Source: a virus
UHGV virus genome: UHGV-0073579
DNA length: 36,345 nt
Reading direction: 5' to 3' (one strand)
The notes under the pieces are model-generated. The model saw nothing but the letters and a program-made list of their open reading frames with translations. It searched no databases and was not told where the DNA came from. Numbering within the stretch: the stretch's first letter is position 1; every line of letters begins with the position of its first letter. Positions 1,641 through 27,508 of this stretch are shown one piece after another. Position numbers and translations under genes: made by a program.

Positions 1641-1673
1641 GTCGTTAATTCCTATGCGTGGTTTTACGATACC

Positions 1674-1720
1674 GAAGCCCTGACTGTTCCCGCAGTTGGG
1701 GCTTCACTGTTTTGATTTCT
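1674..1720 (+). terminator. Plus-strand hairpin plus T-rich tract between ant and arc (possible terminator of a sar-like antisense RNA)
   Basis: gaagccc...gggcttc stem followed by actgttttgatttctttg on the plus strand; no T-run on the minus strand. Confidence 0.35.
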
Positions 1721-20505: not shown

Positions 20506-20581
20506 TGGTGCTGGTTAACGGACTTGAACCGCTACCCATTCGCTTACAAGGCGACTGCTCTACCATTGGAGCTAAACCAGC
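20506..20581 (-). tRNA. tRNA-Thr (anticodon UGU)
   Basis: Hand-folded 76-nt cloverleaf: acceptor GCTGGTT/AACCAGC, D-arm GCTC-CAATGGTA-GAGC, anticodon loop CTTGTAA, T-arm AGCGG-TTCAAGT-CCGTT, 3' ACCA; one G-A mismatch in anticodon stem. Confidence 0.6.
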
Positions 20582-20586
20582 ATGTT

Positions 20587-20661
20587 TGGCGGGACAGCGT
20601 GGACTCGAACCACGATAAGAAGGTTAACAGCCTTCCGTAATGACCTTTATATGACTGACCC
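20587..20661 (-). tRNA. tRNA-like element, Asn-type anticodon arm (GUU), aberrant D-arm; possibly a pseudo-tRNA
   Basis: T-arm CGTGG-TTCGAGT-CCACG and anticodon arm GAAGG-CTGTTAA-CCTTC match tRNA-Asn; acceptor has one T-T mismatch; D-stem does not pair. Confidence 0.4.
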
Positions 20662-23833: not shown

Positions 23834-25714
23834 TTAATACTCCGTCACGTTTTCCTGTCGCCACGCCTCGTCATATTCCGATTTCGGCATATTGGCGATG
23901 TAGCTATATGGCGATCCTGATTCAAGTTGCAGGAACTGGTGCGATTGCTCGTCAAGGAACAACGGGACACCACCTTCCCAACCTTCGCCGTTACGTTGTT
24001 TTTCAAGCATCAAAACAGATGCCGGAGATGCCAGTAGCTGTTCGTCCTTCTCTGACATCTTTTCACCACTCTGAACTCTCTGTAACGCTCTCTCGCGAGC
24101 CTTGTTACGCCAGATGATAAAAAGGTTGTCTGTCAGGTCTGTTATCGCTCCAGAGCCTTTTACGTCCATTTTCCCGGTTGGTTTTTCTTCGCTGTCTCCT
24201 TTTCTGGAGTGAGTAACGAGAATGACGTGGGAGTTTGTTTTGTTTTTGAAGTCACAAATCGAGTCAACAAATGCTTTCTGCCCGTTATAGTCATCGTCAC
24301 CTATGCCGCATTTCATCAGGCTGTCGATGATGAATAACTGGATGCCGTATCGGCGGCGAGCGTAGTCGAATATTTCGATCAGCCTGTCGGCTTTCGCCGT
24401 TCCGGTCAGGCCAAACACCCAGAGTCTTTCGTCATAAAATTTAAATGCAGAGTCAATTTCCAGCACTGGCGGCATCTTGCAGCACGTTGCCTGACGGGTA
24501 AGTCGCTTAAGGAGAATACCAGGCTTCAGCTCAAGTGACGCGATGCATGTCTTCACACCCTGACGCATTGCCTCAAGTGCCATATGCCCGACAACCTCCG
24601 TTTTTCCGTGACCGTTCACACCATTGACCAGCGTCAACTCTGCCTCACGGAACTGGAATTTATCTGCCAGAGATTCCCACGGTGGATTAAACAGATACTG
24701 CTGCTTGCCGTAGAAAGCGTTGATAGTGTCCTGGTAAAACTCTCGCGCGCTGTAGAGTTCTTCAGGGTCGAAGTAGGATGCCGTGCCGATGTACTGCCAG
24801 ATTTCATCCTCGGTAACACCGTTCATCAGGCATTCGTTGATGTCTTTGTACGGCAGAGTAACAAGACGGCAACGATGTTCACCGAGTCGGCTTGCGATTT
24901 CCCTTGCGGCTTCACGACCAACATCATCAACGTCCATCGAGATGAATATTTCCTCAAACCTGTCGAGGTTGTGATACTCAAACTCAATCCACTGTTGCTT
25001 AGCGCCTTTTCCTCCACCAAACGGCACGGATAACGCCGAGATGCCGTATTGCGCATAGCTCATACAATCAATTTCGCCTTCGCAAAGCACAACCGCCCTC
25101 ACGCCAGCGTCCAGAGCCTGCCATCCGAACAGACAAGGTTCACAATCACCTTCTGCCATAATGACTTTCTTCCCGTCCGGGCGCTCAGTGCTGATTCGCT
25201 TGACCTGCAACAACTCACCATCGCGTTTGTACGGAAGCACCAGTGCATCAAGTTCTCGTTCTCCATTCCACACCTTGCCGCTGACAACCTCGTAGCGCTT
25301 TACGACTTCTGGCGATATGCCACGCGATTGCAGGTACTCAAGATGGGATTCTGTTCTGGTAACGTAGCGGGCTATTTTCTTGCGATCAGGTCTGGAGAAT
25401 TTCTTCTCACGTTTGGCATCGAAATGGTGATCGTCATCCTTGATACCGAGAAATGCTTTCGCTTCCTGCATAGCCTGATGCAGGTTAATTCCACGACATG
25501 CCATCCACAAATCAAGCATGTCACCGCCGTCTCCCTCAGCGAAATCAGCCCATTTTTTCTTGCCGCTAAGATTGACCTTAAGGCTGTTTCCCTTGTCACC
25601 ATTGACGTTACCGGCAACCCACTCATGCCCCTCTTTCTTGCCGTTTGGCAACAGGTGCGGAGCCACCCTGTCAACCTGCGCCCAAAGCAGGTCGCTAAGT
25701 TCACTTGGCGTCAT
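23834..25714 (-). CDS. Bifunctional primase-helicase (Toprim domain plus SF4/DnaB-like ATPase)
   Basis: 626 aa; Toprim-like CEGEIDCMSYAQYGI; Walker A VNGVNGHGKTEV; Walker B LFIIDSLMK. Confidence 0.8.
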   Translation of the reverse strand: MTPSELSDLLWAQVDRVAPHLLPNGKKEGHEWVAGNVNGDKGNSLKVNLSGKKKWADFAEGDGGDMLDLWMACRGINLHQAMQEAKAFLGIKDDDHHFDAKREKKFSRPDRKKIARYVTRTESHLEYLQSRGISPEVVKRYEVVSGKVWNGERELDALVLPYKRDGELLQVKRISTERPDGKKVIMAEGDCEPCLFGWQALDAGVRAVVLCEGEIDCMSYAQYGISALSVPFGGGKGAKQQWIEFEYHNLDRFEEIFISMDVDDVGREAAREIASRLGEHRCRLVTLPYKDINECLMNGVTEDEIWQYIGTASYFDPEELYSAREFYQDTINAFYGKQQYLFNPPWESLADKFQFREAELTLVNGVNGHGKTEVVGHMALEAMRQGVKTCIASLELKPGILLKRLTRQATCCKMPPVLEIDSAFKFYDERLWVFGLTGTAKADRLIEIFDYARRRYGIQLFIIDSLMKCGIGDDDYNGQKAFVDSICDFKNKTNSHVILVTHSRKGDSEEKPTGKMDVKGSGAITDLTDNLFIIWRNKARERALQRVQSGEKMSEKDEQLLASPASVLMLEKQRNGEGWEGGVPLFLDEQSHQFLQLESGSPYSYIANMPKSEYDEAWRQENVTEY

Positions 25715-25821
25715 GATTCCCTCAGATTGAGATTTTTAAACCAGAAATCGACAAACGAAATACTTAACCAGCCGTGGTTATAACCAGCGACCAGTAGCGA
25801 TTTGATTTTTGATTTCATGGT

Positions 25822-26682
25822 TCACCTGTCGAAAAACACGTAGCCAGTTTTCGATACGGTGATTGCGGATGATGGTTTGGATTGTGGTTGAATAGTTTCT
25901 GGCTTCTCGTCGTTCCAGCGTTGACCGTTCAGGTAGCTCGATGGTAACAACCTGTCGAATCCGAACTGCTTACCATTCCTGCATGCGATGTCTTCTGCCA
26001 GCATCGTGGCAAACTCGCTTGCCGTACCCCTGGTAGTTTTACGCCATTCCCTGAACTGTGTTCTGAATGCCGAAGCTGCGTTTTTCTTCCCGGCTTTCCG
26101 CATGCCTGCACACCAGAATATTTCCTCGAATGCCTTGTCGGTTTCTTCGTGACGGTCATGTGATTTTTCACACTCCGTCCGAACACTTTCGGACATAGTG
26201 TTTTTATTATTTCTTTTTTCTTTTGTAATAGTTTCTTTTGTGTGTCCCTGTTTTGGTGACAGCGCTGTCACCGTTTTGGTGACACTTTTTGTCACCAATG
26301 TAGTGACATTATCACCAGAGTAGTGACACCCTTCTATTTGCCATTCCTCGATGTTCTTGTTAGGACCGATTTGCTGGCCTTCGCGAAGGATAACCTTCAT
26401 CGCGATAAGCTCATTCTTGGCCTTGTTTACCTTCTGTCTTGGCAGCCTGGTAATTTGAGCTAACTGACTATCAGAGATGCGATCCATCTTTTTACCGTAG
26501 CCGTATGTTTTACGGCATATGGCGTGGGCAACCTTGCTCTGATTTTTCGTTAAATCTGCGCCGATAAGCTCTTCATACAGGGCATTTGCAAGACGGGTAT
26601 AACCATCTTCAACTTCTGCCACACGACGCTCCACAGGCCGTTGTGAAGGCCTTAAATGTGTTACGGTTGCAAGATTACTCAT
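25822..26682 (-). CDS. Replication initiator, lambda O-like N-terminal domain with a different C-terminus
   Basis: N-terminus ...[56 protein letters not shown] resembles lambda O; iterons lie inside the gene. Confidence 0.8.
26195..26335. repeat. Candidate replication origin: iteron array plus AT-rich tract inside the O-like gene
   Basis: At least six GGTGACA/TGTCACC units within about 26250-26330, next to an AT-rich stretch at about 26195-26245. Confidence 0.6.
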
Positions 26683-26821
26683 GACCTTTCTCCTTCTGCA
26701 TCAGCTTCACTTTTTCCAACTCAGCCCGGAATCGACCAGGCTGCTTGAAGCTGGACAGGAAGCGATCACGTAGTATGTGTTTGTGAATTTTGTCCTGGTA
26801 AGGACTGAGTTGTTTTGTCAT
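26675..26821 (-). CDS. Small ORF (48 aa) between cII/c1 and the replication initiator
   Basis: ATG with AGGAG 7 nt upstream; [48 protein letters not shown]; stop overlaps the O-like start; below the track cut-off. Confidence 0.4.
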
Positions 26822-26855
26822 AATGACTCCTGTGGATTGATCCAGTCTTTCTACA

Positions 26856-27134
26856 TCAGGCCTCGAAGAATTCGCAGTTCTTCGGGGCTTTTTCTTTTGT
26901 CAGCATTCTGGCTACTTTCTTAGCCAGTTCCGCCAACTCCTCGTCTTCAACACCCCACTCCAGTACAGCCAGAAGCATGGCCATCTTTGGGATAAAGCTG
27001 TCTTTCCATCGCGAAATTTGCGATTCATTGATCCCTAATGCATCAGCAACCTTTCGCTGACCACGTACAGCAATTCGATTCAGGATGTTGCTTGTAATTG
27101 CATTCGCTTTCTTGCGAGTACTTGTAAGTTCCAT
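26856..27134 (-). CDS. cII: CII-type transcriptional activator (P22 c1-like)
   Basis: Start at internal Met: [61 protein letters not shown]. Confidence 0.8.
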
Positions 27135-27428: not shown

Positions 27429-27508
27429 AGACTCGCTCCGAAATTAAAGAACACTTAAATTATCCACTAAAGGAATCTTAAGTCAAGTTTATTTAAGATG
27501 TCTTAACT
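27429..27508. promoter_or_regulatory. OR operator region with pR and pRM
   Basis: Three about 18-bp operator-like sites with ATTTAAG...CTTAAAT half-site symmetry between divergent cro and c2. Confidence 0.65.

Follow-up and report, generated by a model that had tools for sequence, protein, structure and literature searches.

The initiator gene and its operon

The DNA analysed here, referred to as the window, is a 36,345-nucleotide stretch of virus genome UHGV-0073579. Its minus strand carries, in the direction of transcription, a pR-like promoter, cro, cII, orf48/DUF2740 (48 codons), and an O-like replication initiator gene, followed by a 35-codon open reading frame, a gene for a 626-residue Toprim/DnaB-type protein, and NinB; the repressor gene lies on the strand opposite to cro–cII–orf48–O. 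This minus-strand gene set is a lambdoid phage's early-right operon. The candidate promoter (TTGACT-16-GATAAT; 27459–27486, minus strand), which lies upstream of cro–cII–orf48–O on the same strand, was recognized by pattern match to the consensus only. When 1.2 kb of the replication region (25700–26900) was used as a query, the window was found to be 99% identical to phages Sf101 and mEp043.

The O-like gene (25822–26682, minus strand) encodes 286 residues and contains the whole of the origin described below. Pfam Phage_rep_O matched residues 20–114 (1.2e-37, 128.8 bits; cut-off 28.7), and TIGR01610, the NCBIfam model for the N-terminal domain of phage replication protein O, scored 105.3 bits (cut-off 45.5), both matches thereby exceeding the curated cut-offs. 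The N-terminal origin-binding domain segment (residues 1–116; 26335–26682, minus strand) was assigned from this profile match and from the co-variation reported below, and it includes a putative recognition helix situated just after a conserved DRIxDSQL motif. By BLASTP, the protein is 49% identical to lambda O over residues 1–157 and 45% identical to P22 gp18 over residues 1–159, with no similarity past residue 157 or 159, respectively; a preliminary description of this DNA had likewise called the C terminus unlike that of lambda O. The C-terminal domain segment (residues ∼158–286; 25822–26211, minus strand) belongs to PHROG 33384 and is presumed to be a docking domain for the primase-helicase. 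A PDB sequence search with the O protein returned no solved structure, the best match (E = 0.8) being irrelevant.

Anatomy of the iteron array

The repeat unit within the O-like gene is a 19-bp dyad, TGTCACC-N5-GGTGACA, present in four copies between 26243 and 26328. In gene order, iteron 1 (26310–26328; sense strand TGTCACTACTCTGGTGATA) has one mismatch to the search pattern, iteron 2 (26290–26308; sense strand TGTCACTACATTGGTGACA) has none, iteron 3 (26266–26284; TGTCACCAAAACGGTGACA) is a perfect dyad with none, and iteron 4 (26243–26261; TGTCACCAAAACAGGGACA) has one mismatch and a degenerate arm on its AT-proximal side. The pattern used for these assignments was TGTCAC-N7-GTGACA, with mismatches counted over the 12 specified positions. 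Start-to-start spacings are 23, 24, and 20 on the plus strand (20, 24, and 23 in gene order), or roughly two helical turns, and the array occupies codons ∼119–147 of the 286, between the N- and C-domain segments.

The exact word GGTGACA/TGTCACC occurs four times within 26255–26296 and eight times in the whole 36-kb window, compared with 3.4 occurrences expected from shuffles. Scanning the whole window for the dyad with up to two mismatches gave five matches against 1.39 expected; four of the five fall within 86 bp, for which a Poisson estimate from the scan rate gives a chance probability of ∼5e-12. The preliminary description had counted at least six copies of a GGTGACA/TGTCACC unit at this place. 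The location stands, as does the count once a single mismatch is allowed, because the array consists of eight half-sites (four exact, three with one mismatch, and one with two). The unit does not stand: a 7-mer repeat was ruled out, since both the repeat search and the dyad scan return four in-register 19-mers. Exact GGTGACA words at 25519 and 25594 were considered as extra O sites and rejected. These are isolated half-sites arising from Gly-Asp codons at the start of the primase-helicase gene, and one of them is also found in ES18, whose iterons are of the lambda type; both were counted as chance or coding occurrences.

The AT-rich tract and palindrome

Adjoining the iterons is an AT-rich tract (26200–26242), the presumed DNA-unwinding element, which aligns with the AT-rich regions of lambda and ES18. 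Its G+C content is 15% over 26200–26239, in agreement with the strongly AT-rich neighbour stretch reported earlier, and the iterons and tract all lie inside the initiator reading frame, again as reported. Directly past the tract is an inverted repeat absent from the preliminary description (26170–26201; 14-nucleotide arms at 26170–26183 and 26188–26201, separated by a 4-nucleotide gap). Folded as single-stranded DNA, this element gave −11.9 kcal/mol with z = −6.6. It is shared with ES18, and a hairpin at the same position was obtained for most of the related loci folded, lambda included, with z values ranging from −0.2 to −6.8. No known RNA family was detected by Rfam within the origin region. 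Along the direction of transcription, the order is iterons, AT-rich tract, and palindrome, which is likewise the order in ori-lambda.

Megablast matches to the window end at 26210 for PhiR12 and at 26255 for ES18; because of these end points, the exchange of N- and C-terminal modules can be placed in or beside the AT-rich tract, which is the mosaic crossover zone between them. The AT-proximal degenerate arm of iteron 4 and the start of the tract are nearly alike in the lambda class, the window class, and a single Aeromonas locus, giving a near-common junction sequence of ..CAGGG(G/A)(G/C)ACACAAAAGA.. and a conserved degenerate arm of ..CAGGGACACACAAAAGA...

Conservation of the iterons among relatives

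A divergent set of loci was assembled from a scan of one genome per species, with N-domain identities from 100% to about 53%; about 30 diverged relatives were compared, and five iteron classes were found. Lambda itself came up as a contaminant in many assemblies (e.g. L117). The 12 window-class loci analysed, with N-domain identities down to 66%, represent Escherichia, Citrobacter, Pseudescherichia, Proteus, Xenorhabdus, Photorhabdus, Providencia, Enterobacter, and Huaxiibacter. All keep the TGTCAC/GTGACA arms, including the loci from the last six of these genera, with N-domain identities of only 66–76%. The repeats are thus retained in diverged homologous initiators; their lack of conservation had been named beforehand as an outcome that would refute the origin reading. 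The 5-nucleotide spacers and the linkers between iterons are variable, and information content is 1.2–2.0 bits in the arms and 0.5–1.1 bits at the five spacer positions. Iteron number also varies slightly, from three in a Photorhabdus locus to five in two Enterobacter/Huaxiibacter loci, a variation reminiscent of Stx phages, which have six iterons (PMC7466680).

Third codon positions were compared across seven diverged genes. Mean pairwise identity was 0.86 for the arms, as against 0.47 for the sequence coding the N-domain; the spacers (0.73) and the AT-rich tract (0.71) were intermediate. Across its four copies, the iteron word is read in frames 0, 2, 2, and 1. Since the same word is read in three frames, the constraint on the arms acts on the DNA and not on a peptide repeat. 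The window and a Proteus phage show 100% identity over iterons 3 and 4 and the AT-rich tract, with flanks at about 70%, and recent recombination, rather than selection, could account for part of the conservation seen in the arms and tract.

Joint variation of the iteron arms and the putative recognition helix

Iteron arms were found to co-vary strictly with the putative recognition helix across the five classes. Helix LPVKRCNEAKLELVRM accompanies arms ATCCCTC..GAGGGAT in lambda, ES18, and loci from six other species, and the helix peptide of the window accompanies TGTCACC..GGTGACA in the window and its relatives. Arms TGTTACC..GGTAACA are found with helix ISRPKANIAKNELI in Rosenbergiella and Symbiopectobacterium, and with a variant helix in Yersinia; TGTCCCA..GGGACA occurs with LSRKAVNFAKNTLIRM in Aeromonas, and TTTACC..GGTAAA with APTKCSTAKNELIRM in P22. 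The arms change as a set when the helix changes, at constant geometry. This strict co-variation lends indirect support to specific binding of the iterons by the initiator. In the loci cross-scanned with the window-class and lambda-class iteron patterns, no cross-hits were obtained, in keeping with the earlier statement that the iteron sequence differs from that of lambda. Origin-binding "specificity types" of the N-domain are already known in P22-like phages (PMC2629481).

A broader joint reading of these data may be offered tentatively, although we judge it doubtful as a whole. Here, at least five mutually orthogonal N-domain/iteron pairs (which may be those of lambda, the window class, TGTTACC, TGTCCCA, and P22) would share one invariant scaffold and a degenerate-arm junction element. 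The scaffold may consist of the 20/24/23 spacing together with a last iteron starting 20 nucleotides before the AT-rich tract. On the same reading, and speculatively from its conserved sequence, the degenerate arm of iteron 4 may be a functional element where the O complex meets the unwinding element, not a weak or decayed half-site; it may, for example, be where one O subunit moves from duplex to single-strand contacts. If true, a recognition code could be read for this helix-turn-helix domain, and a set of compatible replicons would be at hand.

The C-terminal domain and its proposed primase-helicase partner

Between the O-like gene and the primase-helicase gene lies the 35-residue open reading frame (25711–25818, minus strand), a homologue of ES18 gp60 belonging to PHROG 21848. 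The 626-residue protein that follows (23834–25714, minus strand) is a bifunctional primase-helicase resembling T7 gp4, as indicated by Pfam, PDB, and PHROG matches. Toprim_2 matched residues 209–296, and AAA_25 and DnaB_C matched residues 355–594, the DnaB_C match (23.8 bits) being under the Pfam cut-off of 27. Against the PDB, T7 gp4 (5ikn/6n7i/1q57) was matched at about 1e-23 over residues 191–539, covering the TOPRIM and helicase domains, as was Twinkle; PHROG 239, "DNA primase/helicase", was matched at 1.9e-171. With a TOPRIM primase domain fused to a DnaB-family (RecA-fold) helicase domain, the protein is of the T7 gp4 type (SF4). The gene is not Phage_lambda_P, and no P, DnaC, or DnaB-like gene was found among the open reading frames and Pfam matches of the replication module of the window. 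As similarity to lambda O ends at residue 157 and the downstream gene is not P, the module is therefore assigned to the ES18-type sub-module and not to the O/P module.

Comparison across loci links the type of O C terminus to the gene that follows. The window C-terminal type was followed by the primase-helicase in eight of eight loci, five with window-class and three with lambda-class iterons, and in none of the loci with other C-terminal types was the primase-helicase next door. The lambda C-terminal type precedes P, each of three further types precedes a DnaB-like helicase of its own, and one precedes a DnaC/IstB-like or P-like protein. In all loci typed for both features, the C-terminal type predicts the partner gene, and it sorts independently of the N-domain; ES18 represents a natural swap, combining lambda-type iterons with the window-type C terminus and primase-helicase. 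The suggestion in the preliminary description that the C terminus fits recruitment of the phage-encoded primase-helicase is supported by this linkage. Overall, the comparison of modules supports a two-module model of O, a model that reportedly dates to lambda/phi80-type hybrid studies.

Proposed mechanism and alternative explanations

Taken as a whole, the locus is very probably where vegetative replication of a P22-like, temperate lambdoid phage or prophage starts, an origin homologous to ori-lambda and placed within the initiator gene. The original interpretation as an origin is supported, by comparison only. The mechanism proposed draws on the lambda-type system (PMC7466680, PMC8022706, PMC2629481). 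By homology to lambda O, dimers of the O-like protein would bind the four 19-bp dyads through the N-terminal Phage_rep_O domain, and the resulting O–iteron nucleoprotein complex would destabilize the adjacent AT-rich tract of ∼43 bp. The C-terminal domain of O would then recruit the T7 gp4-like primase-helicase encoded two genes downstream, a contact suggested by gene linkage only, and this enzyme, once loaded on the melted DNA, would prime synthesis, such that the lambda P/host DnaB/DnaG route would be bypassed. The pR-like promoter would drive transcription into the origin. The 35-residue open reading frame or host factors could also play a role.

Three other explanations were weighed. The repeats might be a by-product of a repetitive peptide linker between the two domains, with no function at the level of DNA; the linker encoded by the array is indeed of low complexity and rich in V, T, and K, and iterons 2 and 3 are in the same reading frame. 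Against this, the four copies of the word occupy three frames, each unit has dyad symmetry, for which a peptide repeat gives no reason, and the arms switch together with the N-domain helix while geometry stays fixed. With third-position identity in the arms also far above that of the flanking coding sequence (0.86 versus 0.47), a peptide-repeat artefact was ruled out on frames and third-position conservation, and we regard it as barely credible. A second alternative, that the origin is as described with helicase loading still proceeding through host DnaB and the phage protein acting only as a primase or in a later role at the fork, is very unlikely. It can draw on the sub-threshold DnaB_C score (23.8 versus 27 bits) and on other lambdoid modules with the same N-domain, in which host DnaB is brought in by P-like or DnaC-like loaders; it has to be set against a T7 gp4/Twinkle match that spans both the TOPRIM and the helicase domains, a module devoid of P, DnaC, or DnaB-like genes, and the finding that all loci with the window C-terminal type have no loader gene between O and the primase-helicase.

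It is also conceivable, and in our view improbable, that O-bound iterons serve mainly in regulation or titration (as a means of autoregulation, of controlling copy number, or of excluding related phages) and that the primase-helicase starts at a site of its own. Some primase-helicases, such as P4 alpha, do recognize their own origin, which counts for this possibility. Plasmid iterons also serve in copy control, and cloned copies of ori-lambda inhibit phage growth (PMC3349717, PMC4488673). The exact adjacency of AT-rich tract and palindrome to the iterons, just as in functional ori-lambda, speaks against a mainly regulatory role, and the strict linkage between O C-terminal type and primase-helicase argues for joint action of the two proteins. 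Furthermore, the helicase is of the T7 gp4 type (SF4), in which no DNA-binding origin domain was detected, and the vicinity of the replication genes showed no second array of repeats. An origin of the ori-lambda type, served by the phage primase-helicase, accordingly remains the preferred reading.

Distribution and significance

The iteron class was found in 14 phage records, representing about ten distinct phages, in at least 369 IMG/VR stretches, and, as an origin type, in 181 of 5426 complete E. coli genomes (about 3%). The 80 loci returned by the IMG/VR scan are nearly identical and inform on prevalence only, not divergence. The matched phage records list no origin feature at the position of the match, and those of Sf101 and PhiR12_1, inspected individually, contain no rep_origin. 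In the searchable literature, the iteron sequence is printed nowhere, the five text matches being to unrelated primers, and neither for this sequence nor for those of Sf101 and mEp043 were binding or origin-activity experiments found. An origin is not discussed in the Sf101 paper, which states only that the replication module resembles that of mEp043; a lambdoid mosaicism paper and a paper on a Chi-rich lambdoid phage contain nothing on this origin.

Origins embedded in O-type genes are already known, and lambda, P22, and L are known to differ in iteron type. The sole novelty is the repeat sequence, in an element that is otherwise ordinary and of a well-understood, lambda-type build; understanding of lambdoid origins is unchanged, and the finding will not surprise a specialist. 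It does allow the origin to be annotated in Sf101, mEp043, SEN22, and related phages, and in E. coli prophages. The loci compared also constitute a natural experiment in which the iteron follows the N-domain and the helicase or loader gene follows the C-domain, with crossover at a conserved AT-rich tract. Several apparently orthogonal origin/initiator pairs of the same geometry are thereby made available for studies of DNA recognition or for compatible replicons.

Comparison with known origins

Several phages share the array almost unchanged: Sf101, mEp043, SEN22, vB_EcoP-720R6, and PhiR12_1-5 carry it at 98–99% identity, and in the first four the entire module of the window is present. The PhiR12 phages differ in that the N-domain and iterons of the window (98.6% identical) are joined to a lambda-type O C terminus and P.

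The reverse combination is seen in ES18 (gp59 and gp61, a putative primase/helicase), epsilon34, and g341c, which have the C-terminal half of O, the AT-rich tract, and the palindrome in common with the window. The ES18 module includes the 35-residue open reading frame and the primase-helicase as well, with ∼94% DNA or protein identity in the shared parts. It differs in its lambda-type N-domain and iterons, with the mosaic joint at the boundary between iteron 4 and the AT-rich tract. The ES18 record places a rep_origin inside gp59, annotated "similar to lambda ori". On alignment, the four lambda-type iterons of ES18 (TCCCTC..GAGGGA) fall in register with the four dyads of the window, and the AT-rich tracts align base for base. 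A plus-strand spacing of 23, 24, and 20 is common to the window and to ES18, PhiR12_1, and a Proteus phage; with the conserved GPNKN codons as the reference point, loci of the lambda, window, and Aeromonas classes all show 20, 24, and 23, and in all three classes the last iteron starts 20 nucleotides ahead of "ACAAAAGA".

P22 gene 18, proposed at the outset for comparison, contains an annotated rep_origin (NC_002371) of identical geometry, with four dyads of ∼19 bp spaced at 20, 24, and 23, an AT-rich tract that starts with "ACAAAAGAC", and a palindrome rich in G+C; the orf48 and oop region upstream is also shared. The differences lie in the iteron, TTTACC-N5-GGTAAA in P22, and in the C terminus, which belongs to the type that goes with a DnaB-like helicase (gene 12) and not with a primase-helicase. 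P22 and L have iteron types of their own (PMC8022706).

In lambda, O binds to four iterons midway along its own gene, beside an AT-rich tract (PMC7466680). Ori-lambda and the origin of the window are alike in lying inside the initiator gene between two domain segments, in having four 19-bp dyads spaced at 20, 24, and 23, in the 20-nucleotide distance to "ACAAAAGA", and in an alignable AT-rich tract of ∼40 bp followed by an inverted repeat, which in the window sits where ori-lambda has the palindrome at its right edge. They differ in the arms (ATCCCTC/GAGGGAT in lambda and TGTCACC/GGTGACA in the window) and in the putative recognition helix, that of lambda being VKRCNEAKLELVRM. The C-terminal domains of the two O proteins, of which that of lambda binds P, are unrelated, with P in lambda and the primase-helicase in the window. 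The earlier description had spoken of an architecture that parallels lambda ori; because of the shared geometry, the aligned AT-rich tract, and the identity of the N-domains, the relation is one of homology and not mere analogy.

Origin variation in related loci

Among loci carrying TGTCACC..GGTGACA iterons, as the window does, the number of copies was not fixed; three were present in Photorhabdus kayaii and five in both an Enterobacter MAG and Huaxiibacter (L094, L096, and L098). The latter two have their fifth copy on the promoter-proximal side of the array, with a distance of 18 nt to its neighbor. In two further loci, from Symbiopectobacterium purcellii (L103) and Providencia alcalifaciens (L093), the O-like gene ends inside or shortly past the origin. 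The S. purcellii sequence is unrelated from within the fourth iteron onward; that of P. alcalifaciens meets an early stop past the AT tract. With their breakpoints at the origin, these two loci resemble prophages in decay.

The scan of bacterial genome contigs also returned exact lambda O/ori sequences in dozens of "genomes" of unrelated bacteria (L115–L139, L143, and L146), including Bradyrhizobium, Paenibacillus, Helicobacter, and Mycobacterium. The carriers were short contigs, contigs of ∼48 kb, or vector-like fusions, and these entries are contamination by lambda control DNA or cloning vector. In Aeromonas piscicola (L108), the O-like gene is adjoined by a downstream ORF, from about nt 2200, for a DnaB-like helicase. 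An intein-like stretch, which includes LLADGSWVEMGKIQVGDHV, breaks this helicase directly past the Walker-A motif (GARPKMGK).

Genes and RNA elements around the initiator gene

Between O and the T7 gp4-like primase-helicase gene of the window, a 35-aa ORF (25711–25818, minus strand; PHROG 21848) is a homologue of ES18 gp60; its stop overlaps the start of the primase-helicase gene. Eight loci share this module type, defined by the O C terminus, and in seven of them an ORF-sized gap of ∼110 nt separates O from the primase-helicase gene; in ES18, the ORF in this gap is annotated as gp60. Toward its 5′ end, the primase-helicase gene of the window contains two isolated GGTGACA words (25519–25525 and 25594–25600), which fall on Gly-Asp codons. 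One of them recurs in ES18, whose iterons are of the lambda type, so the two words are unlikely to be O sites.

Elsewhere in the window, the Rfam model for sar RNA matched 1642–1708 (plus strand; 76.6 bits). In P22, sar belongs to the immI (ant) region as its antisense RNA, and the match is in keeping with a P22-like phage. Neighboring genes for tRNA-Thr(TGT) and tRNA-Asn(GTT) at 20506–20661 (minus strand) may represent phage-borne tRNAs or an attachment-site region.

The start of O is overlapped by a 48-aa DUF2740 ORF (26675–26821, minus strand), a homologue of P22 orf48. It is labeled "tail protein" in RefSeq and PHROGs, which looks like a propagated misannotation, the gene sitting in the early-right operon. 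Just upstream of O, on the strand opposite to cII/orf48, lies a strong hairpin of 15 pairs resembling an intrinsic terminator (26858–26890, plus strand), with a T-run extending to about 26900. The annotated oop terminator of P22 aligns with it, the flanks being conserved and the stem sequences unlike, which marks the element as an oop-like antisense RNA.
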